Shown here: positions 11,333 through 47,435 of the stretch, piece after piece
How positions within the stretch are numbered: position 1 is the first letter of the stretch
How the letters are laid out: each line of letters starts with the position of its first letter
Source: Chiloscyllium plagiosum
Lineage: Eukaryota
Assembly: GCF_004010195.1 (NCBI RefSeq)
Contig: NC_057719.1
Span: 41,809,674-41,857,108, forward strand
Length of the DNA stretch: 47,435 bases
Direction: 5' to 3'
The notes under the pieces: generated by a model
Database searches by the model: none
Told to the model about the DNA's origin: nothing
The model's input: only the letters and a program-made list of their open reading frames with translations
Translations under genes and position numbers: made by a program

Positions 11333-11493
11333 CTAACTTATACATGCCGTCCTTTTCACTTTTGAACGTAACCTGCACAAAGTCTATTTAACAGTAACTT
11401 AAATTCTGCAATTCAGAAAGGATCTGGTTAATGTGACAGCAAGGGAGAATTTGACTGGTACTATCCTAACTTAATTCAAAAAGTCATTTTGAG

Positions 11494-11668
11494 AAAACTA
11501 AAGATCTTTGGATGCTGGAAATCTGAAATAAAAACAGAAAGCACTGGAGCAACTCAGCAGGTCTGGTAACATCGGTGGAGGGAAAGCAGAACTCAAAACA
11601 TTAACTCTGCTTTCTCTCCACAGGTCTGCCAGATCTGTTGAGGTCTGTCAGCAATTTCTGTTTTTGCA
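11494..11668. mobile_element. Fold-back mini-element made of inverted PLE-like termini
   Basis: Arms aaaacagaaa..ctggagcaactcagcaggtctgg..catcggtggagggaaagcaga and tctgctttctctccacag..ctgccagatctgttgag..cagcaatttctgttttt are reverse complements. Flanked by the direct repeat TCATTTTGAG (11484-11493, 11669-11678). Confidence 0.7.
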
Positions 11669-12690
11669 TCATTTTGAGTAAACAGATTGTATTCACACAA
11701 TAGAAACATTTTTGCAGATTATCAAAATCTTTTTTAATTCATGTATAAATGCATTTTTTTATAAATATACATTTCTGACATCATATAAATAATCTGACTG
11801 CTAACGCAATGGACAATGCCTCAATTGTTGATTTGTAAATCAGATGGGTCTGACTGCACCTCTTAGGAGTTGTTATTTTTGTCAAGAAACTTTGTTCAGA
11901 AATGTCTAATTCTGACTTTGGGCGTTGGCATAAAACAACGCAATAGCTGAAAACTGAATGCAGTATTTATTAGATGATCTGATCTGACCTATTTGATACA
12001 ATCACAAAGTCAAAATTAAACCCAGCCGACATAAATTTAACTTTAATGATTTAGTCTGATAAGAAATCCTTTGAAGCTGTTCCTGCAGTGTTATTTCACC
12101 TCAGGGGCAGCACAGAAAGCAGGAAATTTGCTGCACTTCTGAGGGAAAATCCCTGGCTAAGCTATTTGAGAAATTTCCAAACCATACAGTTTTTAAAAAT
12201 GTGGTTGTGGGCTCACACTAACAGATTTCAATATATTCCATAACTGGATTCAATAATATCAAGATACTCACAAAACTGTATGTTTTTTTTGTGAATGGTT
12301 GAGTTCTCAAGATATTTGACTTGAATGTTCCTGTCCCTGAGAGGTGGGAGTAGAGGCACGGAAGCTTATGGAACAGGGACACACGTTGGAATGGTTCCCC
12401 ATTGCAATCCAGCCAATCAGAAAGTTTCCCATGGAGGTGTGCAGCCAATTTGCATGAAGAGCCTCTTCCAGGCCACTTTACATGTCCACCTATCATTTAG
12501 CTAAGGTTGTGGGCATTGGACAGTGGGACTGGACGTACAATGCTCCAGTCCCAATGATCCCCACAGAGGTTTTTTTTTCTCCTAACCATAAAGTCTCCTG
12601 TCCTAGTCTCTTAAGTTTTTAATGTTGCATACCAATTTGAGGGGACCTCCATTTCAATTGGGCCAGCAGCATCAGAAGCTTGCCTATTTG

Positions 12691-14021: not shown

Positions 14022-14340
14022 AGTCACTTCACAGAATGCCTACAGTGTGGAAGCAGGCCATTTGGTCCATCAAGTCCACACTGCCCATCCAAAGAACATC
14101 CCACCTCCCCACCTATCCTGTCCCTGTATTTCCCATGGCTAATCCATCAACCCTGCAAACTATGGGTAATTTAGCAGGCAAATCTACCTGTCCTGCACAT
14201 CTTTGGACTGTCGGAGGAAACCAGAGCAACCCATGCAGACATGGGGAGAATGTGCAAACTCCACACAGACAGTCACACGAGGCTGAAATCAAACCTGCTG
14301 TGAGGCAGCAGTGCTAACCATTGAGCCTCCACGCTGCCCC
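14022..14340 (-). mobile_element. HE1/V-SINE-type SINE
   Basis: ggggagaatgtgcaaactccacacagac...gtgaggcagcagtgctaacca...gctgccc is homologous to 3183-3493. Confidence 0.85.
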
Positions 14341-16049: not shown

Positions 16050-16630
16050 GTGTCCACTGCGAGCTGTGTTCCCTGCCCTCACTTTCCATTCTCTTGAAGC
16101 ATTAGAAAATGGCAAGGACAAGGACCAGCATAGACACAGTAAACTACAGTTCGATGGACAAAAGCATTGGATTCATTTGCTGGATGCTACAAATACAGGA
16201 AGTAGCCACTTGCGAAGCTCAACCACACTTAATTTGCAATCATTTCAATGCCCATTTGCTATGCATGCAGTTTGAAGAAATTGAGGGGTTAGATGCTGGT
16301 CAAAGGCAATTTACAACATGCCACTGCTGCTTGCAAATTGAACTTGGGTACCTCAATAATGTTGAAGTTAGCAGTAATGACATTACAAAAGGCCAATATT
16401 GACTGAAGGGGAACCATTATTCTTGTAACTTCCAAGTGTCCTGTGTGAGTCACACAATATAATTTGTCACGTGTGTGTACTATGGTCTGTATTAAGTGTA
16501 GTAAGTAGTTGAACATTTGATCTGAGTCTGGGGTAGGAAAGATGTTGAACCACTGCAGGCAATCCCTTCTCAATGACACTCAGCCAGCACAGCACCTTCA
16601 TCAAGTTGTTACACAAATTGAGCTTGGGGT
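16050..16630 (+). mobile_element. Highly degraded PIF/Harbinger transposase remnant
   Basis: Fragmentary similarity, in the expected order, to Harbinger transposase motifs (F..AG.P.V.G, FHS.N.QL.C, GYP, LHN); many disabling changes. Confidence 0.3.
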
Positions 16631-16639
16631 GGGGGAGTC

Positions 16640-16930
16640 CAGAACTTGAGGGCATAGGCTTAGGGTGAAAGGGGAAAGATATAAAAGAGACCTAAAGAGC
16701 AACCTTTTTCACGCAGAGGATGATGCATGCATGGAATGGGCTGCCAGAGGAAGTGGTGTAGGCTGGTATAATTGCAACATTTAAAAGGCATTTGGGTGGG
16801 TATATGAATAGGAAGGGTTTGGAGGGATGTGGGCCAGGTGCTGGCAGGTGGGACTAGATTGGGTTGGAATATCTGGTCGGCATGGACGGGTTGGACTGAA
16901 GGGTCTGTTTCCATGCTGTACATCTCTATG
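16640..16930 (+). mobile_element. CR1 LINE 3' end
   Basis: ggggagtccagaact.gagggcatagg...ccagaggaagtggtg..ggctggtataattgcaacatttaaaaggcattt...gggtctgtttccatgctgtacatctctatg is the CR1 3' ORF2/UTR. Confidence 0.9.
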
Positions 16931-17589
16931 AATGTGGATGGATGAAGAAGTCATGTCCCACATTACGGGGGTGTAGCATGTCTCACTGTCCAGTGTGGCG
17001 TGCTCAGTCCTCATTTGCTAGGTATACCAAGGATGACTGATCTGAGATTTTAAAAAACTGTCACTTCTTAGCTTCCCATTAAGTCATTTCCACTAAGTGT
17101 CCAGGCCCTGCCACTGATGGCATGTTGGTCCCTGAAGATATGGATCTGCTGCTTGGACCTGCCTGGGAGGGCTGGCCCTCCAGTATAGTCCTGACAGAAT
17201 ATGCCACATCATCCCTGTGTGCTGTGCTTTGAATATCTGGAGCAGGGAATGAGTCAATGTATTAGATGCTAAGAAATTGAGGGAATCGGAGTAATCTTTC
17301 AAGGAGAAGGACAAGGGGTGGGGGGGGAGGGGTAAGGGAGGGAAGGAAGGATTGTCATTGCTCATGACAGGTCAGCTATATCAGGCACTACAGACAGAAC
17401 CTCACTTGTCATAGATGAGTGCAACAATCTATTGTGGACTGTAAAATAGTAATTGGTCATGATGCTGAAATCTGGCTTGCATTGTGGGGAAAGGCAGTTT
17501 GTATTTGCTTTTGTTTTCTGTAAACAAAGGCTTATGTTTCATTTTGTCCATCTATGTGATGTCCCTGTACTGGACAATGATGAACTGTG

Positions 17590-17801
17590 AGAAAATGTGA
17601 ACTGCAGATACTGGAAATCAGAATCAACAGATGTGGTGCTGGAAAAGGACAGCTGTTAAGGCAGCATCCTAGAGTTGACGATTCGAGCATAAGCTCTTCA
17701 CCAGCAATGTAAAAGATGAAGAGCATTTGCCTCAAAACGTCGACTCTCCTGCTCCTCAGATGTTACCTGACCAGCTATGCTATTCCAGCACCATACCTTT
17801 T
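17590..17801. mobile_element. Fold-back mini-element of two inverted PLE termini, each with a degenerate hammerhead motif
   Basis: Left arm is the reverse-complement PLE end including the tail; right arm is the forward end lacking the tail. Flanked by a 17-bp direct repeat GACAATGATGA(A/G)CTGTG at 17573-17589 and 17802-17818. Confidence 0.8.
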
Positions 17802-20800
17802 GACAATGATGAGCTGTGGGCCGACAGTGAGAAATGGGGTCGGATTAGCACTGACTTAGAGGATGTTCAGATGGGATGTAGTGATAGACAGGTAAAGTAT
17901 GGCTGAATGGTTAAGCAGTGACTAGATTGTGCGAATGAAGTTGTATGTGTGAGAGTGTGCCAGCTTTTCCAGCTATGTGCCATGCGCAACTTGGCTTATG
18001 GCTGTAGTGCCATGAGACTGCCAATGAGGGATAAGTCTGGATTGATAATATGTGTTTGAGGGCATAGCAGCCTTTCAAAAGTGGCACGAGTGCAAGGGGT
18101 ACCTATGTTTGGGAAGATATCTGCTGAATGGTGAGCTGTTGTAGGAATAATACGTGGTCAAGTGGAGCTGGAATCAGACTGGTGGGGTAGGTAGCTAATA
18201 CATTGAGTTTGGTACGATGCAAAATAAAATCACCAGAAATGGCAGCAAAAAATTTCCAAATAATTTCAAAGCAACTTGGACTTAGCCAATAAAGCATAAG
18301 AGTCAGCTGATCATGACTAATGGTGGTAGGAGCATTGGAACACTGCCACCTACAGCTTCTCTTCCAGGTTACATACCATTCGAAGTAGGAAATGCAATCA
18401 CATTCATTTATTATCACCAAGTCAAAACCCTGGAATGCTCTCCCTAATGTGGCTGTAGCTGTAACTAGATCCCATAATCTGTCATAGTTCAAGAAGGAGG
18501 CTCACCAACACCAGTTCAAGGGCAAAGAGGGTTAGATGAAAAATGCTAACATGGTCAATGATAACCACTTCTTTAGATCAAGAATTAACATGAATCTATG
18601 GGAAGGGTGCGTATTATATGCAGGGGCTAAAGCCATCTGTTTTAGTTTACTAAATATTTAGTTGGACTAAGTAACAAATAACAGTATGGCAATACAGAAG
18701 TGCTAAAGAGGTAGAGAAACCTATACGTGGAACCTGATCCTATGTTTCCAGGAGATATTGCCCAAAAGCAGAATGTAGATACATAACAGGCAAGAGTTCA
18801 GGATAGATCCTTGGGAAAACTCTATATGTAAAAAGAACAGAGGTTGCAAAAAAAAAAATTGCTTGAAATACTCCAGCTAGAATTGCATGGTAAGAGCATG
18901 GTAGGAGGTGGATGATATGGTCGACTGCAATAAGGTTGTGAAGGACAAGGATTGATAGTACACCACAGGCAGTCACCAAAGAAGCCACAATTTATTCTCA
19001 GGACTTCTCCTCGCTGTCTGTAACTGAAGTCACCATTTCCCAAAACATGACAGACTTTACTAAGTGCAAATATATTCCAACTGATATTCTACAAACAAAG
19101 TATTGTAACAGCCACTCATTGGCCTTCTTGTACACGAGTTTATAAAGCATATGCTGAAGGCATCTCCAAACTTATCATGATACCAACATGAAGTGGACTT
19201 CAGGTCAACTTTTCATCTGTCTTTGCTATTCGTAGATTAATCCTATTAGGTCAAATAATTCAAAAGCTTGTAACTAGCATAATATGGCAGTTTGGATTTT
19301 AATTCTTGTGTGTGGTGAATAGAGATGGGACTATTCTCAGCCCCACAAAATGTATCCTTTTAAAATGGTTGCCCAAACTTATTATTTTTGATCTGGGGCT
19401 ACAGTCCGGATTAGAAGCCAGTGCCTTATCTCAGCCAGAGAACTGTTCTACCTATCTGAATGAGCATATTACCTCTCTAAAGGGTATCTTACTTTTCCCA
19501 AATGTATCCCGGGATTGGTGCCAAAAGGATACCATGCACCTCTGGGCTAACCAAACAGGTCCACAAGGTTCAGATCCCCTTTTACCTGGTCCAACCTACA
19601 GACATCAGGATTCAAACACATATCTCATCAAAATCACACAGGATTGGAGCCAGCTGGCCATTTAAATGGGAATATAGGAAGTGCCATGTGCAGAGATAGA
19701 ACTTGCCATTTCTGAGCATTCCTGCCATTTTTGGCTATGACAGTAGGACAGAGAGACTTGCCACCCAGGAAAACTTCCTGAGCCAAAAGGAATTAATGCC
19801 TTTAATGTCATAAAACCTTCAAAGGTGCTTCACTGAAGCACTATTAAACAAAAATCAATACTGAGCCAATTCACGGAAAATGTCAGAAGTTAGGGTCTAG
19901 GCAGCTGAAGGCATGGTCACTATGCTGAAAATCGAAAGTGCAACTGGCCAGAATTGGAGGAAGACAGATAACCCTAAGGGATGTGGGATGGAATGAGGTA
20001 AAATTTATAGAGATTGATGAGGGTTTGGCAGGTTTTGAAAACCAGCACGGACATGGGTAAACAGCTGTGAACCCTTTGTAAGGAATGACAAGGCAAATAA
20101 GTCTTAATATCGAATCACAAATTAGCAACTTGCCTCAGTTAAACCACGCAATCAAACTGAAGTACCCCTCAAGGAAATACTACCTACCGTCTGCCGATAA
20201 ATCTGTTTTTATATTTCTATCATATACCATCCACATAATTTGACTGACAACCCTCAACTCCTCTGTTCTCCTGATGACAGTGTGAATCACACTGCGACTG
20301 GAAAGCTGTCATCTCCATTGCAAGTTCAAAAAGCTTTATGCAACAGGTTTGCTTTCCAATTAGGAATGTTGATTAGGTACTGGATTCAATACTAACTTGA
20401 AAAACAATCCAGTAAAACAGAGGTTGGCAGGTAATATAGTAGACAGAAGCAGGAGTAGGCACATCAAGCCTCCTCCGCTATTAGATCTGACTATCACTTG
20501 AATCAATTCTGAGTGGCTTTACACGGAAACAAAAATAAAACTGTCAGTTCTGAAGAAGAGCCACTGGACTCAAAACATTAATTCTGCTTTTCTCCACAGA
20601 TACTGTCAGGCAGCAATTTCTGATTTTGCTAAAGAATTTTAAATGCAAGGTTTCAACATATGTCAGGTGGAATGTTAACTTGTATCCTCCACACCATTCA
20701 TAACCATTTTGTCATAAATCAAAGACTAACTGGTCATCCTGCCTGATCTTTCCACTGAAGTTCACAGAACCGTAGTTCAAACTTTGTCTGAAGATTTGTT

Positions 20801-21479: not shown

Positions 21480-22300
21480 TTAGAGTCACAGAGATGTATA
21501 ACATGGAAACAGACACTTTGGTCCAACTTATCCATGCTGACCAGATATTCTAAATAAATCTTGTCCCATTTGCCAGCATTTGGTCCATATCCCTCTAAAC
21601 CCTTCCTATTCACATCCCCATCCAGCTGTCATTTAAATGTTGGAATTGTATCAGCCTCCATCACTTCCTCTGGCAGCTCATACCATACATGCACCACCGT
21701 CTGCATGAAAATGTTGCCTCTTTAGGTCCCTTTTACATTTTGCCCCTCTCACTTTAAATCTGTGCTCTCGTGTTTTGGTCTCTCCCACTCCGAGGAAAAG
21801 ACCTTGTCTATTCTATGCCCCTCTTTATAGACCTCTTTAAGGTCACCCCATAGCCTCTGTCACTCCAGGTAAAATAGCCCCAATCTATACAGTCTCTCTC
21901 TGTAGCTCAAACCCTCCAACTCCAATCTTTTCTGAACCCTTTCAAGTTTCACAACATCTTTCCTATAGCAGGGAGACATGAGTTGCACACAGTATTCCAA
22001 ACATGGCCTTACCAGTGTACTGCACAGCCACAACATGACCTCCCAACTCCTATACTCAATGTTCTGACCAATAAAGGCAAGCATACTAAACGCCTTCTTC
22101 ACTATCTTATATATCTGTGACTCAACTTTCAAGGAGCTATGAACCTGCACTCCAAGGTTTCTTTGTTCAGTAACACTCCCCAGGACCTTACCATTAAGTT
22201 TATAAGTCTGCCCTGATTTGCCTTTCCAAAATGCAACAGCTCACATTTATCTAAATTAAACTCCATCTGTCACTCATTGGCCCATTGACCCATCTGATTA
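21480..22300 (-). mobile_element. CR1 LINE 3' portion
   Basis: ORF 21860-22150 (QVHSSLKVESQ...LVRPCLEYCVQ...KDVVKLERVQKR) plus the CR1 3'UTR with an agagtca-type tail. Confidence 0.92.
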
Positions 22301-22470
22301 CTTAGTTTAAAGTTTAAACTAATGGTTCAAATTTTCCAATTTATCCATTAGTACTGTTTTAGATTGATGCTGCAGTCTAGAGAAAGTGATGACTGCAGAT
22401 GCTGGAGATCAGAGTCGAGAGTGTGGTGCTGGAAAAGCACAGCCGGTCAGGCAGCATCCGAGGTGAAGTA

Positions 22471-22507
22471 GAATCGACGTTTCGGGCATAAGGCCTTCAT
22501 CAGGAAT
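22471..22507 (-). ncRNA. Minimal hammerhead ribozyme motif
   Basis: Minus strand ATTC-CTGATGA-A-GGCC(ttat)GCCC-GAAA-C-GTC-GATT. Core is intact; one mismatch in helix II. Confidence 0.65.
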
Positions 22508-23822
22508 GAGGCTTGTGGGTCAGGACTGAGAGATAAATGGGAGGGGTGTGGGGCTGGGGGGAGGTAGGTGGGAAATCAATAGGTGGATGAAGGTGAGGGA
22601 GAAGGTGATAGGGCAGAGGGGGCAATGATGGATGGGCCCGGAGGGCAGTGCCGAGTTGGAGGCTTGGGACTGGGATAATGTTGGGGAATGGGAAATGAAG
22701 AAGCTGTTGAAATTCACATTTATCCCGTGTGGTGTCAGGGTCCCAAGGCGGGATATGAGGCGTTCCTCCTCTAGGCGTCGAGTGGTAATAGTTTGGCAGT
22801 GGAGGAGGCCCAGGACCTGCATGGCCTTGGTGGAGTGGGAGGGGGAGTTGAAGTGTTCAGCCACGGGGCGGTGGAGCTGGTGGGTGCAGGTGTCTCAGAG
22901 ATGTTCTCTGAAACTAAAAAAAGTGTACTGTCTCCCCGATGTAGAGGAGACCACACCGGGTGCAAATGATGCAGTAGATAACATTGGTAGAGGTGCAGGT
23001 GACTTTCTGACAGATGTGGAAAGATCCCTTGGGGCCCTGGACAGAGGTGAGGGGAGTGGTGTGGGCACAGGTTTTGCACTTCCTGCAATGGCAGGGAAAG
23101 GTGCCCGAATGGGTGTCGGCTGGTGGGGGGGTGTCGACCTGACAAGGGAATCACAGAGGGAATATCTTTTTGGAACGCTGATAGGGGTGGGGAGGGAAAT
23201 TCATCTGTGGTGGTAGGGTCCGTTTGGAGGTAGTGGAAGTGGCGGAGGATGATGTGTTGTATGCGGAGGTTGGTGGGGTGAAAGGTGATGTGTTGTAGGC
23301 GGGTTCTGTCCTCCGCCTTCATCACATCTGTTCCCAGGATGACCAATTCCACTTCAGAAAGTCCCAGATGGCCTCCTTCTTCCACGATTGCAACTTCCCT
23401 TCCCACGTGGTTGACGATGCCCTCCAGCGCATCTCCTCCACTTCACGCACCACCGGCCTTGAACCCCAACCCTCCTAATGCAACAAGGACAGTACTCCCC
23501 TTGTTCTCACCTTCCACCCCACCAACCTCCACATACATCATCCTTCACCACTTCTGCCACCTCCAAACCAATCCCAACACCAGAGACATATTTCTCTCCC
23601 CACCCCTATTAGCGTTCCGAAAAGACCATTCCCTCTGCAAATCTCTCAACAGGTCCACGCACCCCACCAGCCCACCCCCCCACTCCTGGCACTTTTCCCT
23701 GCCACCACAGGAAGTGCAAAACCTGTGCCCACACTACTCCCCTCACCTCCGTCCAATGCCCCAAGGGATCCTTCCACATCCGTCAGAAATTCACCTGCAC
23801 CTCTACCAATGTTATCTACTGC

Positions 23823-23856
23823 ATCCTGATGAAGGGCTTTTGCCTGAAACGTCGAT
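23823..23856 (+). ncRNA. Minimal hammerhead ribozyme motif
   Basis: ATC-CTGATGA-A-GGGC(tttt)GCCT-GAAA-C-GTC-GAT. Core intact, helix I ATC/GAT, GUC cleavage triplet. Confidence 0.7.
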
Positions 23857-24497
23857 TTTCACGCTCCTTGGATGCTGCCTGACCTGCTGTGCTTTTCCAG
23901 CACCACTCTAATCTAGACTCAGCACCCAGTGTGGTCTCCTCTACATCGGGGAGACAGGACGCTTTCTTTCGGATTGTTTCAGAGAATGTCTTTGGGACAC
24001 CCGCACCCACCAACCCCACCACCCTGTGGCTCAACACTTCAACTCCCCCCAACTCCGTCAAGGACATGCAGGTTCTGGGCCTCCTCCACCACCAAACCAT
24101 ACCACCCGCTGCCTGGAGGAGGAATGCCTCATATTCTGCCTTGAGACCTTGCAATCACATGAGATAAATGTGGATTTCAACAGCTTTCTCATTTCCCCTC
24201 CGCCAACATTATCCCAGTCCCAAGCTTCCAACCTTGGCACCACCCTCTGGACCTGTCCATCATTCCCCCTCTGACCTATCACCTTCTCCCTCACCTTCAT
24301 CCACCTATCGCTTTCCCAGCTATCTCCACCCAACCACACCCGTCTCCCATTTATCTCTCAGCCCCAACCCACAAGCCTCATTCCTGATAAAGGGCTTATG
24401 CCTGAAATGTCGATTCTCCTGCTCCTCAGATGCTGCCTGACCTGCTGTGCTTTTCCAGCACCACACTCTCGACTCTGATGCTGCAGTCCATAAATTA

Positions 24498-26127: not shown

Positions 26128-26620
26128 TAGGCAAAAGTGAGGACCGCAGATGCTGGAGATTAGAGTCAAGATTAGAGTGGTGATGGAAAGGCACAGCAGG
26201 TCAGGCAGCATCTGAGAAGCAGGAAAATCGACGTTTTGGGCAGGAGCCCTTCATCAGGAATGAGAATTGGGGCAGCACGGTGGCACAGTGGTTAGCACTG
26301 CTGCCTCACAGCGCCGGATATCCGGGTTCAATTCCCGCCTCAGGACTGTGTGGAGTTTGCATGTTCTCCCTGTGTCTGCGTGGGTTTCCTCCGGGTGCTC
26401 CGGTTTCCTCCCACAGTCCAAAGATCAGGTGAATTGGCAATGCTAAATTGCCCGTAGTGTTAGGTAAGGGGTAAATGTAGGGATATGGGTGGTATGGGTG
26501 GGTTGCGCTTCGGCGGGTCGGTGTGGACTTGTTGGGCCGAAGGGCCTGTTTCCACACTGTAATGTAATCTAATCTAATCTAATAATCTAATCAGATGCTG
26601 CCTGACCTGCTGTGCATTTC
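26128..26620. mobile_element. Composite insertion: inverted PLE terminus + full SINE + forward PLE end
   Basis: 26128-26265 is a reverse PLE end, 26269-26592 a SINE, and 26592-26620 cagatgctgcctgacctgctgtgcatttc. Bounded by the 13-bp direct repeat CTGCAGAAGGATT (26115-26127, 26621-26633). Confidence 0.8.
26269..26592 (+). mobile_element. HE1/V-SINE-type SINE, full length and well preserved
   Basis: GGGCAGCACGGTGGCACAGTGGTTAGC (A box), GGTTCAATTCCC (B box), central domain, (TCTAA)n tail; many CpGs retained. Confidence 0.92.
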
Positions 26621-27539
26621 CTGCAGAAGGATTGAAACTGGCTAGGAGAGAGGGGAAAGAAGTGGCAGATGGAATATAAAGTGGGAAAGTGTGAGGTTAT
26701 GCTCTTTGGTAGTAAGAATAGAGACAGAAAACTTTCTAAACAGGGGAAGGCTTTGAAAATCTGAAATACAAAGGGAATTAGGAGTCAGATTAACATACAG
26801 GTTCAATTGGCAGTTAGGAAGAAAATGAAATGTTAGCATTTATTTCAAGAGAGTTGGAAAACAAGAGCAGAGATGTACTGCTGAGGCTGCCTAATGCTAT
26901 TGTCTGACCACATTTTGAAGATTGTGAGTATTTTTGGGTCCATACCAAAAGAAGGAAGTGCTGGCGTTGGAGGAGGTCCAGAGGAGGTTTCCAAAATTGA
27001 TCGTTGGGATGAATGGCTTGTGATATGAGGAGTCATTCAGGTCTCTGCGTCTGTACTCAATAAAATTTAGAAGGATGACGGGGTATCTGATTGAAACTTA
27101 GAGCATACTGAGAGGTTTGGATAGAGTGGATGTGGAAAAGATGTTTCCACTAGTATGACATACTAAAGCCCAACAGCACAGCCTCAGAGTGAAGGGGGTG
27201 ACTCTTTAGAACTGAGATGAGGAGGAATTTCTTCAATCAGAGGGTGATGAATCTGTGGAACTCATTCCCATAGAAAGCTGTTCAGGCCAAATCACTGAGT
27301 GTATGTAAGACAGAGATAGATAGGTTCTTGATAGTAAGGGGATCAAGGATTACAAGGAGAGGGAAGGAGAACGGGGCTGAGAAACATATGAGCCGCGGTT
27401 GAAAAGTGGAGCAGACTCAATAGGCCAAATTATCTAATTCTGCTCCTACGCTTCATGGTCTCATGGTTTCTTGAACATTTCAACATAGCAGTAGATACCT
27501 GAGATATTGAATAAGGAGTGCAGTGCAAAGAGTTTAGTG

Positions 27540-28790
27540 AGTAAGAGACGGTAGATAAAGATCCAGTGGGGAAAGGGTATTGTGGGAATGGGAGTCTATG
27601 AGAATTGGAGACAGTGGGAAAGGTTTCAGTGGCTAAGGAATTCAGATGGAATGTGCTACTGTGGGAATGATTTCAGTGGGTAAGCTGTTTGGGTAAGGAT
27701 TCAATGAATCAGGTACAGTGGCAAGGGGATCAGTGGGAAAGGTTCTTTATGTAATGGGTACAGTGGGTAAGAAATACCTGAAGTAATTCATCAAGATGTA
27801 AAAATGATTACAGTGGGTATTGTGTTCAGGGATTTTGGAACCCAGCAGCTATGGAATTTTGTGCACATGGAGCTCAGTGCATAAAAATATTTGGGAAAAG
27901 AAAATTCAGTACATAAGGGATTCAATGGGCAAGGGTCTGGGTGGCTACAGGGTTCAGAGGGAATGTGGTTCAGTGGCAAGAGTTAATTATGTTAGGGGCA
28001 CAATAGGGAACTAGTTTGATGGTAAAGGTTATAGGTGCTCTGGCTATCCAGTTAGGTAGATGAAGGGCTCAGTTATTAAGGGTTCATTGGATATGGGATT
28101 CAGTGTGTACTTTCACTGGGTAAGGCCAGAAGAAATCGGAGCAGAAGTAGGCCATTCAGCCATTTGAAACTACTCCACCATTAAACATGCAGAGGGTGGT
28201 ATGCGTATGGAATGAGCTACCAGAGGAAGTCATGGAGGCTAGTACAATTGCAATATTTTAAAGGCATCCGGATGGATATATGAATGGAAGGGTTTGGAGA
28301 GATATGGGCCGGGTGCTGGCAGATGGGACTAGATTGGGTCAGGATGGTTGGAAAGAAGGATCTGTTTCCGTGCTGTACATCTCTGACTATGACCGACTAT
28401 GACCTCATCATCCTCAATGCCATTTTGTAAGGGCTTAGGGTTCAGTCAGCAAGAGATGGAATGGGTACCAAGTTTGATGGATAAATTGGATTTAGGGCTC
28501 TATGAAGATTGGATGGGTATGTACTAAGTTTAAAGTTAAGTGGGTTTGTGATTCAGTGAATATGAGGTTCAATAGGAATAGGGTGGAATTGGCATACAGT
28601 GGGAATATGGTGGACTTGGGAATATGGTGGAGTTAGGATACAGAGGAAATGGGTTTAAATGGGAATAGGATGGAAATGTGTACAGTGGATATGAGTTTCA
28701 CTGGGAAGAGGGTGGAATTGGGGCACATAGGTTCTGGGTTTGATGGGAAAGAGGGTGGAATTGGGGTTCATAGGATTTGGGTTTCAGTAA
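27540..28790 (+). repeat. Degenerate G/purine-rich minisatellite-like tract (CAGTGGG.AAGGGNTT-like units)
   Basis: Many variants of cagtggg/ttcagtgg/aaggg(a)tt at short spacing. Interrupted by CR1 pieces at ~28130-28400. Confidence 0.6.
28185..28400 (+). mobile_element. CR1 LINE 3' end
   Basis: atgcagagggtggtatgcgtatggaatgagctaccagaggaag...tctgtttccgtgctgtacatctctgactatgac. Confidence 0.85.
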
Positions 28791-32174: not shown

Positions 32175-34190
32175 AACATAGAAAATAGGAAAAGCAGTAA
32201 GTAAATTAGCCTTTCAAGCCTGCGCCACCATTCCATATGATCATGACTGATAATCCAAATCAGTAACTTGTTCCTGCGTTCTCCCTATAACCTTTGATCC
32301 CTTTAGAACTAAGAACTATGTCCAACCTCTTCTTGAGAGCATTCATATTTTTGGCCTCAAACACTTCCTGTAGCAGGGAATTCTACAGACTCACCTCTCT
32401 CTGGGTGAAGAAATTTTTCACCTTCTCAGTGTTAAATGGCCTACTCCATGTCCTTAAACTTTGACTCCTGGTTCTGGACTCCCTGGTCACCAGGAACAGT
32501 CTTCCTACATCTAGTACTATTAAACTACTGTTAAAATTTTATCAGATTGCATGAGATCCCCCTCAAAATCCAAAAGTCCTGTGAATATAGCCCTAACTAA
32601 TCTAGCCTCTCTTCATATGTATTCCCAGGAATGGTAAATCTTCGTTACACTCCCTCCAAAGCCAGAACATTCTTCCTCAGATAAGGAGACCAAAACTGCA
32701 CATTCTCACCAATGCCCTGTACAGTTTCAGCACTGCTCCTATATTTGAATCCTTTCACCATGAATCACGGAATCCTTACAGTGCAGAAAGAGGCCATTTG
32801 ACCCATTGCGACAGCACCATCTCACTGAAGAGCATCCCACCAGACCCAGGCACGTAACTCTGCATTTACCATGGTTAATCCACCTAATCTGCACATTGCT
32901 TGACACTACTAGGCAATTTAGCATTGCTAATACAGATAACTTGTACATCTTTGGACTTTGGATGGATACCCACACAGATACAGGGAGACCATGCAAACTC
33001 CACACAGACAGAAAATAACATTTGCCTTCTTCACTGCTACTGCACCTGCTTGCTTACTTGCAGAGACGGATATACAAGCACCATCCAGGTCTCGTTGCAC
33101 CTCCCCCTTTCTGAATCTATCACCATTTACACAAAAATCTACCAAAGTGAATAACTTGACAGTTATTCATATTATACTTAATCTGTCGGGCATTTGTCCA
33201 CTCACTGAAATTGTCCCACCATTCACTACCTGCCGCTCAGAAAAAAACAATTTATTCCTACCTTTTGTTTACTGTCTGTCAATCAATTTTATATCCATGC
33301 CAATACACAACAATACACAACTCTACAATCAACATTTCCTCTAAACTGTGTAGCTGTGATGTTGCCTGACCTGCTGTGCTTTTCTAGCACCACTCTGATC
33401 TAAATCCTAGCTATGTGTACAGTCTCTCCAAGGTTCCGCTCATGGGGATTACATCGACACACCAATCATGGGCACTGACTTCTGGAAGTCGCTGCTGTAG
33501 ATGGACCCCATTGGTCCACGTGGCCAGAGAATAAAGAGAACAAACGCTACCCCAGTCCCATGCGTTTTAATTGGACATGCTAATCGCTTTTGAGAGGCCT
33601 TATTAAAAACCTTTTGAAAGTCCAAGTAAACCAAATCCCATGGCTCCACCTTATTCATTCTACAGGTTTCACATTCGAAAAGTTCAGTAGATTTGTCAAA
33701 CATGATTTCCCTTTCATAAATCCATGCTGACTTTGTCTGAGTTTGTTTTCCAAGAGCTCTCTATTAAATCTTTTATAATGGACTCTAACACTTTTCCCAC
33801 TACCAATGTCAAGCAAGTACACAATTCCCTGTTTTCTCTCTTCCTAGTTTTTTTTAATACTGGGGTTACATTAGCAATCTTCCAGTCCATGAGAAGTGTT
33901 TGAACTTCTATAGAATCTTGATAGATGATCACTAGTGCATGCAGTATTGCTTGGATTGCTTCCTTAAGTACTCTTGGATGAAAATTATTGGGCCCTGGGA
34001 TTTATCGGTCTTTAATCCCATCAATTTCCCTCACACCATTTTCCTACTAACATTGATTTCCTTCAGTTCCTTCCTCTCACTACACCTTGTGTGCCCCAAT
34101 ATTTTTGGGAGGTTATTTGTGTCCTCCTTTTCGAAAACAAAACCAAAGTATGTATTTACTTGGTCTGCTGTCATTTGTTCTCCATTATAA
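32175..34190 (-). mobile_element. Fragmented CR1 LINE interrupted by a SINE (32765-33009) and a short PLE end (~33358-33405)
   Basis: DWKIANVTPVLKK, VVGKVLESIIKD and DLVYLDFQKVFNK motifs in the minus ORFs; CR1 3' tail agaaacatagaaaatagga at 32172-32190. Confidence 0.8.
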
Positions 34191-36055: not shown

Positions 36056-36990
36056 TTAGAGTCATAGATATGTACAGCATGGAAATAGACCCTTTGGTCC
36101 AAATCATCCATGCTGACAAGATATCCTAATCTATTCTAGTCCCATTTTCCAGCACATGGCCCACAGCCCTCTAAACATTTCATATTCATATACCCATCCA
36201 AATGCCTTTTAAATGTTGTAATTTTACCAACCTCCACCACTTCCTCTGGAAGCACATTCCATATGCACCATCTTCTGGGTGAAAAAGTTGCCCCTTAGGT
36301 CTCTTTTACATCTTTTCCCTCTCACCCTAAACCTACGCTCTCGAGTTCTGGACTTCCCCTATCCCAGGAAAAAGACCTTGTCTATTTACCCTCTCCAGGC
36401 CCCTCATGATTTTGTGAACCTCTATAAGTCACCCCTCAGCCTCCAATGCTCCAGGGAAAACAGCCCCAGCCTTTCAACCTCTCCCTTTAGCCCAAATCCT
36501 CCAACCCTGGCAACCTCCTTGTAAATCTTTTCTAAAATTTCACAATATCCTTCCAATAGGAAGGAGACCAGAATTGCATGCAATATTCCAAAAGTGGCCT
36601 AACCAATGTCCTGTACAGCCACAACATGACTTCCCAACTCCTGTACTCAATACTCTGACCAATAAAGAAAAGCATACCAAACACCACCTTCACTATCCTG
36701 TGTACCTGTGACTCCACTTTCAAGGAACTATGAACCTGCACTCCAAGGTCTCTTTGTTCAGCAACACTCCCAGGACCCTTACCATTAAGTGTATAAGTCC
36801 TGCTCTGATTAGCAATTCGAAAATGCAGCACCTCACATTTATCTAAATTAAACTCCATCTGCCACTCCTCAGCCCATTGGCCCATTCGATCAATATCCCG
36901 TTGTATTCTGAGGTAACCTTCTTTGCTGTCCACTACACCTCCAATCTACAAATTTACTAATTATACCTCCTATGTGCACATTCAAATAAT
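36056..36990 (-). mobile_element. CR1 LINE 3' portion
   Basis: ORF 36532-36933 (WAEEWQMEFNLDKCEVLHF...DLGVQVHSSLKV...LVRPLLEYCMQFWSP) plus the 3'UTR. Confidence 0.93.
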
Positions 36991-37817: not shown

Positions 37818-38470
37818 ATAGAGTTATAGAGATTTACAGCATGGAAACAGACCCTTTGGTCCAACTCATCCATGCCAACCAGATATGCTAAAATAATCTA
37901 GTCATATTTGCCAGAGTTTGGCCTATATCCCTCTAAACCCTTCCTATTCATGTACCCATCCAGCTGCCTTTTAAATGTCATAATTGTACCAGCCTCCACC
38001 ACTTCCTCTGGCAGTTCATTCCATACATGCACCACTCTCTGCATGAAAAAGTTGCCCCTTAGGTCCCTGTTAAATCTTTCCTCTCTCAACTTAAACGTAT
38101 GCCCTTTAGGTTTGGACACCCCTACCCTGGAGAAAAGACTTTGGCACTTGTCACTTTGTCATGCCCCTCATGATTTTATAAAGTTCTGTAAGGTCATCCC
38201 TCAGCCTTTGATGCTCCAGGGAAAATAGCCCCAGCATATTCAACTTCTCCCTATAGCTGAAACCCTCCAATCACGGCAACATCCTTATAAATCTTTTCTG
38301 AACCCTTTCAGGTTTAATGACATCCTTCCCATAGGAGGGAGACCAGAACTAAATGCAGTATTCCAAAAGTGGCCTAACCAATGTCATGACCTCCTATGCG
38401 CAGTGCACAGACCAATAAAGGCAAGCATACCTGACGCCTTCTTCACTACCCTGACTACCTGCGACTCAAG
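37818..38470 (-). mobile_element. CR1 LINE 3' portion
   Basis: RFNRDLRGNFFMQRVVHVWNELPEEVVEAG motif plus the 3'UTR. Confidence 0.92.
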
Positions 38471-38654: not shown

Positions 38655-39560
38655 CTCTGGATCAATGGTGCTGGAAGAGCACAGCAGTTCAGGCAGCATC
38701 CGAGAAGCTTCAGCAAAATCGACGTTTCGGGCAAAAGCCCTTCATCAGGAATAAAGGCAGAGAGCCTGAAGCGTGGAGAGATAAGCTAGAGGAGGATGGG
38801 AGTGGGGAGAGAGTAGAATAGAGTACAATAGGTGAGTGGGGGAGGAGATGAAGGTGATAGGTCAGGGAGGAGAGGGTGGAGTGGATAGGTGGAAAAGGAG
38901 ATAGGCAGGTAGGACANNNNNNNNNNNNNNNNNNNNNNNNNNNNNNNNNNNNNNNNNNNNNNNNNNNNNNNNNNNNNNNNNNNNNNNNNNNNNNNNNNNN
39001 NNNNNNNNNNNNNNNNNNNNNNNNNNNNNNNNNNNNNNNNNNNNNNNNNNNNNNNNNNNNNNNNNNNNNNNNNNNNNNNNNNNNNNNNNNNNNNNNNNNN
39101 NNNNNNNNNNNNNNNNNNNNNNNNNNNNNNNNNNNNNNNNNNNNNNNNNNNNNNNNNNNNNNNNNNNNNNNNNNNNNNNNNNNNNNNNNNNNNNNNNNNN
39201 NNNNNNNNNNNNNNNNNNNNNNNNNNNNNNNNNNNNNNNNNNNNNNNNNNNNNNNNNNNNNNNNNNNNNNNNNNNNNNNNNNNNNNNNNNNNNNNNNNNN
39301 NNNNNNNNNNNNNNNNNNNNNNNNNNNNNNNNNNNNNNNNNNNNNNNNNNNNNNNNNNNNNNNNNNNNNNNNNNNNNNNNNNNNNNNNNNNNNNNNNNNN
39401 NNNNNNNNNNNNNNNNNNNNNNNNGGATGGCATTTTTGCAAGAGGTAGGGTGGGAAGAGGTGTAATCCAGGTAGCTGTGGGAGTCGGTGGGTTTGTAAAA
39501 AATGTCAGTGTCAAGTCGGTCGTCACTAATGGAGATGGAGAGGTCCAGGAAGGGGACTGG
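38655..39560 (-). mobile_element. Penelope-like element fragment spanning assembly gap 38917-39424
   Basis: RT thumb motif PFLDLSISISDDRLDTDIFYKPTDSHSYLDYTSSHP at 39430-39560; 3' end with a hammerhead motif at 38655-38916. Confidence 0.88.
38717..38752 (-). ncRNA. Minimal hammerhead ribozyme motif (best-preserved core and helix II in the window)
   Basis: Minus strand ATTC-CTGATGA-A-GGGC(tttt)GCCC-GAAA-C-GTC-GATT. Confidence 0.72.
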
Positions 39561-42500
39561 TTCATAATTATTACAGAGACACACATCTCAAATTCATTTT
39601 ATTTAACTGAACCCACTGCAATATATTTCAGCCAAACAGGGAGCACGTGAGGGGCAGGATTGAGGCACAGGAGATAGAGCCAGAAGCTACATAAATGAAG
39701 ACAGAAACAGACTTGGCAGTGCCATTCTTCCCCAATGTACCTCTGGACTAGAGGGTGTCAGGACAGATAGGGAGATTCTCTTCTGCACAAACAAAGGAAA
39801 AAAAAGCCTGTTTCCAAAAATAAACATGTGTAGCTGAAAATGATGGAAGAGTTTGGGAGAAAGACTGTAGTTAGAAAGTGCTTTGGCAGATAGTGTGGAA
39901 GAGGTTTAAGGCATAGCACTTCAACAGTCTTAATGTTTGCGCTAGCCCAACCATCACACTCTACCTCTCATTCTTCCTTCTTAAATCTTCAGCTGCACAT
40001 CACTCCTCATGCTAACAGACTTTCAGGAGTAATTGCCCTTTCTATGTGTAGGTACTTCCTCACATCCCCTTTAACAAACTATCAGTGACACTCAGCCTCA
40101 TCTCAATACAATGTCACATCAACCCTTCACAGTGATCCTCCACAAATGCTGCCCTTCTATCCTCCCAAATCATCAATTTCTCACGCTCAGACATCTCTTC
40201 CTTCTCTTTTTGCATGTGACAAGCGCAGAGACCACCAGGAGGAACAGAAAACCAAAGGTAGCCCTTCAGCCACCTCCACTTTCATGACCACAGAAGAGAA
40301 AGTGCAGGAGATGGCCAATCTCATTATGCCTAGCTATGGGAGTAAGAAACAATCAACTGGTAGCATACCATATCACATGGTTTATAACACTTATTCATGT
40401 AGATTTGATATCAGACGCTAAAGCTGATAAGTGTGTCATGATAGCTGAGTAACCGATTACCTTGTTAGTTCTAATTCATGTGTTTCATCTAGGTGTCTAA
40501 TGTGCAATATATGATATGACCATTGACATAAATATCAAGCTTACAGAAATGTAAAATCTGGCTGCCCAAGGAAGACTTCAGCCTTTTCTTCTGTTGCTCT
40601 CCCTCAGTAATTTTTTGTATGGATAACTGGGTGATATCTTGCTTTTCAAAAATTGTGTCACAAATTTGCACATTTTATGACAGATAAAGATTTGCTTTTA
40701 ATTACTGGGTACAGTCTGTGCCTGTGAGGTTTCTTTATTTCACCACACTGATGAGGACCTCTAATGCCTGGTAGCTATCCTACCCATTGTATTGGTTTAT
40801 CATGTATGTTGTTTATAGTTTTGTACTTTAGTAAATAAAGGGATTCTGATAATCTCCTGTGCCATGGTTGATTTTCCCTTAGGATTGATCTATGCTGCTT
40901 CTAGACTTCTAGAATGAATCCATTTCAATATTCCTAATACTCATTTTCCAAAGGTTGCCAACTTTCTTGTTGCAGCACGTCTCCTATTAGCTCTGAAATG
41001 CTTTACCATTGTTGGAACATTCTTCACAAGGCTACAAGGGTTTCTTTTGAAGGATTCCAAAACCTTCTGGTCTTCCCTGCCATCAGCTGCTCTGTATAAG
41101 CAGGTGACTTAAAGCTGAGTGCGAAGGTTTCATATCACCATTCACCATGTAGTGTGAGCAAATGAAATCCACACTGTTGCTCACCACCTTGAACAAGCAG
41201 TCAAATTATATTCATGCAAATACTTACCATGTTGAATGGACATGCCAACACACCATGTTGTATTGACCTCCGCACATTGTAAAGATTGCAGCCCCTCTAA
41301 GTGTTGAAAATTACAGAGCCTACTTTGTCTAATATGATAGAGGCAAACTACTTCCTGGTCTATCTAGGAGAATCCCTTATAGTTAACAAAATATAATTTA
41401 TTGCCTGTAAGCAACTAGTTGCACATTACATTGATATGATACACGTTGTAATGGGAACTTTGAGGATGATCATATGTTAACTCTTACTCCTTGCAAATCT
41501 GAAGCTGTTCTACCCATGAGCCCATAAACATAATCAAGGTTATATTTCAGGCACTCCTCAGTATTTCAATCTACTTATGATCTTTCAGACTCATATGCAA
41601 CACATGCCTTAATCAGGTCATCTCAGGCAGCAATATGCATTGTTACTTGTAATTGCCTCAGATTACCTCACCAGACATAGTTACTTCAACATATCACTCC
41701 ATCTCCTCATCCTCATGCTCTTCCTAATCTTCTGAAGAGGCAAAGCACTTAGCACTTTCTTCAGCCCAGATCTACAACCTTCACATTTGCACTGTGTTGT
41801 GCATGGTGCAGGAACCATTACCATTCTGTATATCCTGGGTGAAGCAAGATTTATCCATTCAGTGCATCTTCAGTCTGCCAATTAGGGATGGTCAGCAATG
41901 GCTGACTCTGCCATCGATGCCCAAATTCCAGAAAGGAATAAATCAGAACTGCTTCCTCTGTCACAGCTGTCATTAGCTTTTGTTGCTTGTTTAGTGGGAC
42001 ATCACTGTCTGGGCTCTTCAAAATATCCTCAATCTTGTATGAAAAGATAAACTCATCTTTGAGGCACAATGTACTATCTCTGCTTCAAGTTGTGAATTTC
42101 TCAGACCGGCTTAACTGGGTGGGGATGAAAACATAGAAGTGGGAATATCACGCTCCCTGTGAAATTTGCACAAAAGGCATGTTTTTTTTTGTTGATTGCA
42201 GGCAAACTGAATGCCATATATTCTTATGAAAGATTCAAATCTATGTGACCAAACCTTTAGACAAACAGTAAGGAGTTGAGCCGGACACTAGTAATATTAC
42301 TGAAGGGGTGAATTACATGGCAGTTCTTGGGAATTACTCCATAGAATCTTACAGATGCCTGAATAACACGGGCAATGCTGAGATTTGTAGCAGAATCGCA
42401 TGAGAAATCCAATGAGGCTTATCTTGATATTCGAAGCAACTAGATACATTTTTTATACATCTGCAAGGAATTGAGGTGAGTATCCCAGAAGGCAGCAGTG

Positions 42501-43860: not shown

Positions 43861-44057
43861 TTTGAGAGAAGAAAAGCTCCAGATGCTGGAATCCAAGGTG
43901 GACAAGCAGAAGGCTGGAAGAACACAGCAAGCCAGGCAGCGTCAGGAGGTGGAAAAATCAACATTTTGTATGAAGAAGGGTTACACCAGAAACGTTGACT
44001 ACTTCAACTGATGTTGCCCAGCTTGCTGTGCTCTTCCAGCCTCCTGCTTGTCTACCT
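43861..44057. mobile_element. Fold-back mini-element of inverted PLE-like termini (third subfamily)
   Basis: caaggtggacaagcagaaggctggaagaacacagcaagc pairs with gcttgctgtgctcttccagcctcctgcttgtctaccttg. Central degenerate tgaaga-a-ggg..cca-gaaa-cgtt. Flanked by a 14-bp direct repeat TGCT(C/T)CCCTATTGG at 43847-43860 and 44058-44071. Confidence 0.75.
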
Positions 44058-44338
44058 TGCTTCCCTATTGGATAATAACAAGCTGTACCCCTTCAGTGGA
44101 CATTTGAGATAGAGTAGTGGTGTTTAGACACGGATGTGGTTAAGGACAGGTAAACGGGGTGGCCTGGTGTTAAACAGTGACTAGGCTGAAAGAATAGGGT
44201 TGCATATGTGAGTGAGTAGCAGTCAGGCCAGCTTTGTTCTGTGAGCAGCAAGGCTTTGTGGCTTCTGTGTTACTACATTGCTGGTGATGGACAATTACTT
44301 GGGTTGTCAGTTATAAGAGTTAAATCGGGATTTATATG

Positions 44339-44771: not shown

Positions 44772-45809
44772 ATATGTTCACAGTTAAAGCAAAGGAGCAG
44801 AATTCTCCAGCCATACCTTGTACACCATAAAGAAGGAGATCAACAGAATTCTCCAGAAAGACATTGGGAATGACAAAAGATGAACTGGTTAGGAAACCTA
44901 AGGTGGGGATGATGATAAACAGGTAAGGGTGAAGCAAACAGTTGCAGTGATGGAGCCAGGCTGGGATAGGATAAAAAAGTCCTGAGCGTGTTAGTAAAGA
45001 TTGTACCTGGAACTGGAGAATCTGCTTTTCATATGAATATGCAAAGACAAGATTAGAATTTGAGTAGTAAAGCAGATAGGGGAAATTTTAAAAAAATTGT
45101 GTTTTTGTATTCAGTAGAGTTTTGGCCTGGCTAATCTAGGACGGACTCTCCTTAAATTTGGCTCTGTAAATGATTGTTAACTTGCACGAGAGTATGCTGC
45201 AGATAATTGTTGGAAGTAACCACAACATCAACTCTTGTCCGGGTGCATGGTAGCTCTTTAAAGATGGCGTGGTTGCAAGGGATGCTGGTCTTTTCACTAA
45301 TATCTGCTCAGTGGCAAGTTGTTCTAGGAACAGGTTTTGGTGAGATTTGGTTAGAATCAGATGAAAGGAATTCTGTAAGGGAGGGACAAATAGTGAATAG
45401 GGTGAGTGTGGTAAGATACAGTGAGAAATCTCGTCTGGCCTTGAAGTGAAAACCCTCCAAAAAACTAGATGTCACTGGCATTTAGCCAAGAAAAAGTAAG
45501 ATTCAGAAAAATCTCAGTGGTTCAGAAGCCAGCAGGGAATTGCTATTCCAGGCTGTCTATTTCAGGTGGCTTAAATAAGAAAAGAGCAATTATGAATGAA
45601 AAGATGGTCTCAAGATGGCGGCAGAATAGGATGCTCCAGTCAGTGCTCCTGTGCTTTGCTAGTTCCTTTTCCTTTCTCTTTCTTCTTCTCTTCACCTTTC
45701 TGCAGTTTTGCTTCTCCATCCCATTCATAATTTTAACTTTATAAACTTACTCAGAGCAAATGGAGACGGGTCTAAATCCAACCCGGAGACCATGCTGTGC
45801 TGGAGGCAA

Positions 45810-46090
45810 GTCCTGGAGGTGAGTCATAGGCCAGAGCCTGGAGCGGGAGGCAGCCTGAATCCAGGTCTGCCTGAGAGACGAGTCCCGGAGGCGGGTCCCA
45901 GAGGTGAGCCGTGGGCCAGAGCACGCAGCGGGAGGAAGCCTGAGTCCAGGCTGGCCTAGGAGAGGGGTCCTGGAGGTGAGGCCCGGAGGTGTGTCCTGGA
46001 GGTGAGTTGTGGGCCGGAGCACGCAGCGGGAGGGAGAAAGCCTGAGTCCAGGCTGGCCTGGGAGATGAGTCCCGGAGGCGGGTCCTGGAT
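45810..46090 (+). repeat. GC-rich tandem repeat, about 3 units of 85-100 bp, inside a probable non-coding repeat element (~45611-46310)
   Basis: The unit gaggtgag....ggcc.gagc.cg.agcgggagg.agcctga.tccagg.t.gcct.....gagtcc.ggaggcgggtcc recurs near 45816, 45901 and 45998. The element begins with the YY1-like CAAGATGGCGG at 45611. Confidence 0.75.
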
Positions 46091-46311
46091 CATGGTCGCG
46101 GAGGCATGTCCCGGGCCAGAGGCCAGCACATAGAGGCAGCAAGGCCTGGAATTCTGCAGCCCAGCGGGCATGGACTCAGCAAAAAGTCTACAATTTGAGT
46201 ACTTTTTAAAGATACTTCCTTTACTTATAATACTTTTATTCCTTTTCTGAACTTTAAGTAATTTGAGTAATTTTAAAAACTTTATATTGCTATGCTAATG
46301 TTTTTTGTTTA

Positions 46312-47130
46312 TAGAGTCATAGAGACATAGAGATGTACAGCATGGAAACAGACCCTTCAGTCCAACTCGTCCATGCCAACCAGATATCCCAACCCAATCT
46401 AGTCCCACCTACCAGTACCTGGCCCATATCCCTCCAAACCCTTCCTATTCACATACTCATCCAGATGCCTTTTAAATGTTGCAATTGTAATAGCCTCCAC
46501 CACTTCCATAGACATACCACCCTCTGCATGAAGAAGTTGCCCCTTAGGTCTCTTTTATACCTTTCCACTCTCACCCTAAACCTATGACCTTGAGTTCTGG
46601 ACTCCCCCACCCCAGGGAAAAGACTTTGTCTATTTATCCTTACAATTGTACTAGCCTCTATCACTTCCTCTGGCAGCTCATTCCATACACGTACCACTCT
46701 CTGCGTGAAAAAGTTGCCTCTTCGGTCTCTTGTATATCTTACCACTCTCACCCTAAACCGATGCCCTCTAGTTCTGGACTCCCCCACCCCATGGAAAAAA
46801 ACTTGTCTATTTATCCTATCTATGCCCCTCATGATTTTATAAACCTCTATAGGGTCACCCCTCAGCCTCCGATGCTCCAGGGAAAACAGCCCTAGCCTAT
46901 TCAACCTCTTCCTATAGCTCATATCCTCCAACCACAGCAACATCATTGTAAATCTTGTCTGAACCCTTTCAAGTTCCACAACATCTTTCCAATAGGAAAG
47001 AGACCAGTTTTGCATGCAATACTTCAACAGTGGCCTAACCAATATCCCGTACAGACGCAACATGACCTCCCAACTCCTGTGCTCAAGTCTCAGACCAATA
47101 AAGGAAAACATACCAAACACTTTCTTCACT
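46312..47130 (-). mobile_element. CR1 LINE 3' portion with an internal duplicated segment
   Basis: LVRPLLKYCMQNWS...RRLRGDPIEVYKIMRG...; the segment RINRQ..F.GVGESRT.GHRFRVRV..Y.RD.RGNFF.QRVV occurs twice. Confidence 0.92.
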
Positions 47131-47435
47131 AAGCCCTCCGTTTTTTCCTCTCCAGACGTTCCCAACAGTACCCCTCCACCGACACTCTCATTCGTTTGGC
47201 CGAACTGGTCCTCACCCTTAACAATTTCTCCTTTGAATCCTCCCACTTCCTCCAGACCAAAGGGGTAGCCATGGGCACACGTATGGGCCCCAGCTATGCC
47301 TGTCTCTTTGTTGGCTACGTAGAGCAGTTGATCTTCCGTAAATACACCAGCACCACTCCCCACCTCTTCCTCCGCTACATTGATGACTGCATTGGCGCCA
47401 CCTCGTGCTCCCGCAAGGAGGTTGAGCAATTCATC
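47131..47435 (+). mobile_element. Penelope-like element reverse transcriptase core (5'-truncated, runs off the window)
   Basis: Open frame from 47133: ALRFFLSRRSQQYPSTDTLIRLAELVLTLNNFSFESSHFLQTKGVAMGTRMGPSYACLFVGYVEQLIFRKYTSTTPHLFLRYIDDCIG, with the PLE-type Q..G.AMG....P..A and RYIDD motifs. Confidence 0.93.

Follow-up and report, generated by a model that had tools for sequence, protein, structure and literature searches.

Minimal hammerhead ribozymes of Penelope-like elements (PLEs) have been documented in fish, coelacanth, frog and reptiles. They reside in the pLTRs of metazoan PLEs (Cervera and De la Pena 2014, PMC4209133), where, in the sections of that paper available, their dimers are described as having low activity. 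For the anole PLE, the accessible portion of PMC11167929 describes a hammerhead that cleaves only with the element's own protein and is dispensable for insertion in vitro; reverse transcription starts at two sites that define the tail, uncleaved RNA is the template, and the start points of the enzyme fall at +111-118 of the ORF, 85-92 nt beyond the cut at +26. The available part of 10.64898/2026.07.22.740005 reports that vertebrate PLEs are of the Neptune and Poseidon clades only, that published tests saw no cleavage for 8 of 9 dimer elements from Xenopus, and that retrozymes occur in one chondrichthyan genome; its supplements may cover the shark family described here. A term search of the PMC4209133 text and supplement, as far as these were accessible, found no shark entry, and a literature search that covered few subscription journals found no paper on shark PLE hammerheads.

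The window analyzed here (the whole stretch of DNA, 47,435 nucleotides) carries on its minus strand, at positions 38717-38752, a minimal type I hammerhead with an intact core, recognized both from its sequence and by descriptor search. In the 5' to 3' direction it reads ATTC CTGATGA A GGGC tttt GCCC GAAA CG TC GATT, so divided that, in the conventional hammerhead position numbering, the helix I 5' strand occupies 38752-38749, C3 is 38748, the extra A is 38741, helix II is formed by 38740-38737 and 38732-38729, and the palindrome ACGU spans 38725-38722. C17 is at 38721, giving a predicted cut at 38721|38720, and the four positions of helix I are C-G, U-A, U.U and A-U. The features of the class are present (core CUGANGA ... 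GAAA ... UH in type I order), and among the eight full-length motifs in the window this one alone retains the core, helix II and the palindrome intact. We consider it very probable that this minimal type I hammerhead sequence belongs to the terminal repeat of a GIY-YIG PLE, likely a Neptune element, whose copies in the window are truncated, decaying and likely inert, whose parent RNA would be cut, likely only with help, and whose insertion would proceed by internal priming.

Downstream of the motif, the pLTR segment at 38666-38716 (minus strand) runs to a short 3' end at about +52 to +55 from the cut and is without the long tail. Upstream, 38753-38916 (minus strand) is a pyrimidine-rich PLE 3' UTR of a second subfamily, followed by a 508-N gap (38917-39424) and, at 39426-39566 (minus strand), by a C-terminal remnant of a PLE reverse transcriptase (RT) that matches long PLE ORFs at E 2e-9; these ORFs carry both RVT_1 and GIY-YIG hits in Pfam. 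With PLE-type UTR up to the gap and the RT remnant just beyond it, the motif therefore likely ends a 5'-truncated PLE copy of approximately 0.9-1.3 kb, with the RT remnant likely forming the 5' end of this same copy. We infer this linkage rather than read it directly, because the gap looks some 350 nt too short for the coding sequence that should lie between its PLE flanks; its size may be underestimated, or the PLE copy may be deleted there.

The sequence-only reading had listed ten such motifs running from helix I to helix I', and each of these coordinates is indeed a member of one repeat family, with the correction that 17716 and 43970 start at G5 and U4, respectively, and have neither the helix I 5' strand nor C3. 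A profile search of the window recovered 15 family copies at E<=2e-8, using a profile built from 13 of those same copies. The five beyond the original ten are partial arms at 11503-11639 (minus), 11565-11686 (plus) and 43877-44000 (minus), and copies at 26591 and 33357 that consist of the downstream part only. Two arms retain coding remnants. A 5'-truncated arm on the minus strand (22380-23289) contains an RT C-terminal piece, a CX4CX2C linker, a frameshifted GIY-YIG endonuclease, the 3' UTR, the hammerhead at 22471-22507 and a tail to +96, and its inverted partner on the plus strand (23300-24486) contains an RT/endonuclease remnant, the 3' UTR, a hammerhead at 24380-24414 with G8 and 15.2 changed, and a shorter 3' end. 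Within the endonuclease coding region of the plus arm lies a further unit of approximately 100 nt (23823-23920, plus), a hammerhead with intact core and a G10.1.U11.1 pair followed by a short tail; its insertion site is an ATT that shows microhomology over a few bases, and ATT is the preferred cut of the anole PLE in the available part of PMC11167929.

The remaining copies are shorter. At 10-140 (plus), a hammerhead with A6 changed and a long tail has its upstream part beyond the window edge, and at 20544-20662 (plus) a solo copy of a divergent subfamily carries U-A at 2.1-1.1, a GAG/CTC helix II and a changed G12. Head-to-head pairs, with arms on both strands, occur at 17589-17811 (minus arm 17589-17709 with GAGC/GCTC, two core changes and a long tail; plus arm 17715-17811 starting at G5), at 26134-26628 (minus arm with the hammerhead at 26226-26262, G12 changed and a long tail; plus arm with the downstream part only; insert at 26272-26583), at 43864-44062 (a third subfamily; minus arm starting near C11.1 with a long tail, plus arm starting at U4 with a GGGT/ACCA helix II) and, as an old pair in which both arms are without the hammerhead 5' half, at 11491-11686. 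A downstream-only fragment at 33357-33423 (plus) starts at about +18 from the cut.

Other repeats share the window. A family with a TAATC-repeat tail, which we take to be SINE-like, is found at 3184-3493, 6716-6848, 14041-14340, 32903-33011 and 26272-26583, the last copy lying precisely where the two arms of an inverted PLE pair meet. A second abundant family, probably LINE 3' ends, is found at 5186-5332, 16623-16931, 21480-22293, 28186-28385, 36056-36885, 37818-38469 and 46319-47131. Tandem repeats are present at 45802-46104 (GC-rich, period 85/102) and 28617-28784 (purine-rich, period 43), and a search of the window found no tRNA.

A strict descriptor of the minimal hammerhead gave two matches (38748 minus and 23826 plus), whereas 40 shuffles averaged 0.0, and is thus satisfied by two of the eight full-length motifs; allowing one core mismatch gave six matches against a shuffled mean of 0.65 (maximum 3). 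The loose pattern CTGANGA..GAAA barely exceeds chance (nine matches vs 4.5 expected; 2/100 shuffles), and an Rfam search returned no match at E<=1. The core is intact in three of the eight full-length motifs, which are the three named in advance (38717, 23823 and 22471), but helix II of 22471 contains a C.C mismatch and the 10.1-11.1 pair of 23823 is G.U. Elsewhere one core change is found in each of 13, 24380, 26226 and 20550, and two are found in 17676. The extra A after CUGANGA is present in all eight and the loops ctgt, ttat, tttt and tcct vary as had been described, and the proposed reduction of helix III to the palindrome ACGT holds in five of the eight, single changes breaking it in the other three. 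The G10.1-C11.1 pair is G-C in six and G.U in two. Among six close copies, the changes are decay rather than compensation, because four of the eight non-loop changes in the core and helix II are CpG transitions. The window copies are best described as truncated, decaying insertions that are likely inert, and the window contains no full-length PLE (a complete ORF between two pLTRs); an intact core alone does not make a copy active.

The same caution applies to covariation, which the sequence-only reading had put forward as apparent in the helices. Eleven rows were aligned and eight counted, leaving out 11592 (misaligned, its 5' half belonging to the other arm) and 17716 and 43970 (without the helix I 5' strand). 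Over the eight rows, 85.9% of cells are paired, with 93.8% in helix II and 78.1% in helix I, where pair 2.3-1.3 is unpaired in five. The pairing half of the claim that helix II alternates between GGGC/GCCC and GAGC/GCTC is thus upheld; a clean GAGC/GCTC is found only in 17676, whose core is broken, and the A-U pair at 10.2-11.2 seen there recurs in 20550 and 17716. Within the window, three pairs show two-sided change, a number reached by 55 of 500 shuffles and hence not significant, and the count of further pair types was reached by 348 of 500. None of 500 shuffles reached the covariation score of 0.237 and slid controls all scored lower, but this control ignores relatedness, which alone can suffice, and the two-sided changes trace to a few subfamily events. 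The covariation claimed was overstated, and what the window holds of it is thin.

Signs of constraint are better sought outside the pair count. Two subfamilies are 89% identical over the hammerhead and tail vs 67% over the neighboring UTR, the drop in identity occurring at helix I; for the 38717 copy against the 22507 copy, these values correspond to 75/84 positions over hammerhead and short tail and 109/162 over the UTR at 38753-38916. In runs from related species, U>A at N7 reaches 26%, 48% and 37% of depth and one loop base varies at 25-32% of depth (both among 40 of 126 substitution rows). N7 and the loop are positions that are free in a catalytic hammerhead.

Clear covariation was obtained only in a non-shark outgroup, G001, in which 74 pattern matches were found vs 13 for the reversed control. 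In a set comprising loci L028 and L029 and 30 of the 74 matches, helix I of at least 3 bp is formed in 13 of 20 distinct motifs (permutation mean 3.0, maximum 11 in 2000), helix II follows after one extra base in 16 of 20 contexts, and one motif lies 88 nt downstream of a GIY-YIG ORF; the search pattern required the core, which therefore carries no weight as evidence there, and did not require helix I, and related families inflate the outgroup count. This helix I and helix II pairing in the outgroup thus indicates that the hammerhead architecture is general to PLEs and not shark-specific. The outgroup is itself unusual, being a 12-Mb assembly filed as a bacterium that holds dozens of PLE hammerheads and several long ORFs with RT and GIY-YIG (L028, L029, L031-L073), and because of these it likely contains much animal DNA. 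The module in the window had no DNA match in this assembly.

The placement of the motifs in PLE termini was borne out by GIY-YIG remnants upstream of the 22471 and 24380 copies, approximately 200 nt from the hammerheads, together with the RT remnant upstream of 38717. Searching by tblastn with the L029 ORF (Pfam GIY-YIG 23.0 bits, cut-off 22.6) matched the arms at 22380-23289 and 23300-24486 with E 4e-31 and E 6e-23, respectively. As in endonuclease-bearing (EN+) PLEs, the remnants of RT and of a C-terminal GIY-YIG match ORFs that have RVT_1 and GIY-YIG hits. The window's own 78-aa endonuclease piece scores weakly for GIY-YIG (E 0.28), and its Atlas look-alikes (0.92-0.95) include some in which 10% of members carry GIY-YIG. 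Both arms carry a CX2-5CxxC linker between RT and endonuclease, which in the available part of PMC8557442 is absent from Penelope and Poseidon and also present in Nematis. The clade is likely Neptune, because this linker is absent from Penelope/Poseidon and only Neptune and Poseidon are reported in vertebrates. That the motifs are the shark version of the PLE hammerhead, as had been suggested, stands for the architecture, and a shark origin is plausible from the sole match found, a weak one (E 8.8e-4) to a Chiloscyllium punctatum product that is the same repeat read in another frame. Searches for shark-type copies in two viral contig scans gave one chance match and none, and the RT piece had no match in viral contigs; in metagenome contigs there were 26 pattern matches, one with E 1.6e-5 on the profile (itself selected by pattern) and the others at chance level. 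At the right end of the window, 47133-47435 (plus) is an open PLE RT core that contains YIDD, matches a long PLE ORF with 59% identity (E 2e-33) and runs off the edge and is possibly a young, longer PLE.

In an active parent, the motif is predicted to cleave the RNA of the element itself after GUC. By nearest-neighbor energy, the double-hammerhead fold of 38717 is predicted at -10.3 kcal/mol vs -24.6 for the best dimer fold, with a monomer misfold at -11.4. In the predicted monomer minimum, UGAUG pairs with CGUCG and hides the core; the active dimer fold is thus not the predicted minimum, and the modeled helix I is weak. This predicted misfold agrees with the low dimer activity and protein-dependent anole cleavage described in the available parts of PMC4209133 and PMC11167929. 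The cut would likely need help, from two motifs pairing through ACGU, from the element's protein, or from both, and such help would overcome the weak helix I and the predicted misfold of the core. In RNA run X21, 3,756 reads aligned on both strands, 97% of them continuing into unlike sequence, a pattern that family copies lying within host transcripts would give; no hotspot of molecule starts or ends was listed in this run, a poly(A) single-cell library and hence a weak test, and run X22, to which no reads aligned, carries no weight.

The boundaries of the copies are informative about insertion. Copies span the cut site and have 3' ends near +50-74 or +93-96, and in three runs loose ends pile at 22418-22423 (+53-58) and 22380 (+96). 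The two 3' ends are thus approximately 40 nt apart, a difference that resembles the 30-40-nt PLE tail in the available parts of PMC8557442 and PMC11167929. The long tail is found on one arm only in 5/5 inverted pairs, an arrangement also drawn in PMC8557442. Because copies retain 50-96 nt past the cut site, uncleaved RNA is the likely template, and insertion would likely proceed without need for the cut. Given 3' ends past the cut, the anole start sites and the one-arm tails, the copies are therefore read, as we infer from other PLEs for cleavage, protein or dimer help and internal priming alike, as products of internal priming, truncation and strand switching. Reverse transcription would begin within uncleaved RNA, roughly 55 or 95 nt downstream of the cut site, and in most cases end prematurely, frequently with a strand switch, leaving 90-130-nt remnants, head-to-head pairs and a tail on a single arm. 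Run-off of reverse transcription at the cut site was rejected, as no pile is listed at 22475/22476 and copies span the site. As separate observations, the long tail is on the left (minus-strand) arm in 5/5 inverted pairs, which has a chance of 1 in 16 if orientation is free, and three long-tail copies (22380-22459 minus, 10-140 plus and 26134-26215 minus) share a conserved ATG, some 18 nt downstream of the cut, whose frame stays free of stops to the end of the tail, making it a candidate ORF start. The ATG in the core was rejected for this role, since it meets a conserved TGA, a stop at codon 18-19.

The starts of the copies are harder to read. No PLE UTR precedes 11 of the 15 copies, whose starts lie in the interval from -34 to +18 relative to the cut and in six cases at -25 to -34; in X15, X16 and X21, depth drops by 13-, 47- and 25-fold, respectively, from bin 22491-22501 to bin 22513-22523 (contig depth not being equal to copy number), loose ends also pile at 22507, and 12 of the 15 joints among those listed switch strand at 22501-22509. 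A subfamily with UTR less than 80% alike accounts for part of the depth step, and it is this UTR that the X21 loose-end consensus represents. Splicing at helix I, which would parallel D. virilis, was rejected, as there is no AG there and the loose ends are flank-like or another UTR. The clustering is in part divergent UTR and in part dominance of short copies in a truncation series, with a true hotspot possible; it may mark an RNA 5' end or a block to reverse transcription. Such a hotspot would have the ribozyme set the copying end, reverse transcription starting at a tail site and stopping sharply where helix I has its 5' edge, either because this is the start of the RNA (through a promoter just upstream or upstream-repeat priming) or because a protein-bound ribozyme blocks the enzyme. 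We regard this as possible though improbable; if true, the genome would be seeded with very many precisely bounded 90-130-nt ribozyme cassettes, and the ribozyme would have a cleavage-independent structural role.

The same starts, depth falls and loose ends at 22507 would also suit a 90-130-nt unit of hammerhead and tail that is a non-autonomous family of its own, SINE- or retrozyme-like and copied from short masters by the PLE protein. We find this somewhat less likely still: the 5' ends of the inverted pairs are scattered (-32, -25, -8, +3, +17) as truncation predicts, the same short forms occur in several subfamilies, part of the depth step has the subfamily origin given above, and no tandem arrays were found in the window, whereas retrozymes are tandem. 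It is doubtful that this lineage has lost cleavage and that the PLE retains the motif as a structure for protein binding, priming or the start codon. The modeled weak helix I and core-sequestering misfold, copies that span the cut site and anole hammerhead mutants that insert normally in vitro would all allow it, but N7 and the loop are where variation is seen (among 40 of 126 substitution rows), and the anole motif cleaves once protein is added (both anole results from the available part of PMC11167929). Co-option of the 38717 copy as an active host ribozyme, for which its sole standing as intact in core, helix II and palindrome might speak, is most improbable, as one intact copy in eight fits partial decay, no same-strand tandem partner lies near it, no host gene was found (0 Pfam families among 30 ORFs) and the family is very abundant, with 101,413 and 61,999 contigs aligned.

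The preferred reading remains that of a PLE hammerhead carried by truncated copies. As a kind, a shark PLE hammerhead adds little, and the individual window copies are unlikely to matter to the host. The high-copy shark family is good material for questions of in vivo cleavage and element function, because its several subfamilies permit a proper covariation test.

By their sequence, the window motifs belong to the known class of metazoan PLE minimal hammerheads, with active cleavage a prediction. They share with the examples in the accessible part of PMC4209133 the type I topology without loop III, palindromic 15.2-16.2, one extra nucleotide between 9 and 10.1, and G10.1-C11.1, as well as the occurrence mostly as solo motifs of truncated PLEs, opposite-strand pairs and several families per genome. 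They differ in the helices, with a helix II of 4 bp here vs 7-8 bp in Schistosoma families and a helix I of 2 bp, a pyrimidine mismatch and 1 bp here vs 4-5 bp. Non-LTR retrozymes (PMC7229834; 10.64898/2026.07.22.740005, in the parts available) are likewise short, non-coding, hammerhead-bearing, PLE-related repeats, but form head-to-tail tandem arrays; the window has no such array, its copies being solo or head-to-head, and retrozyme identity was rejected on this ground. With Neptune-clade PLEs, as described in the available part of PMC8557442, the element shares a C-terminal GIY-YIG, the CX2-5CxxC linker, CCHH-type residues, 5' truncation, an inverted 5'-truncated partner and a tail at one end only, the evidence here being the remnants in the window and the clade a likely one. 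Finally, as in Poseidon PAc of Anolis carolinensis (Frangieh et al. 2024, PMC11167929, in the part available), the hammerhead lies upstream of internal reverse-transcription starts, two 3' ends define the tail, uncleaved RNA is the likely template and the target is AT-rich ATT (the 23823 copy is at ATT); PAc differs in being without the CX2-5CxxC linker and in having an ORF that starts at helix II, where the core ATG of the present element meets a stop.
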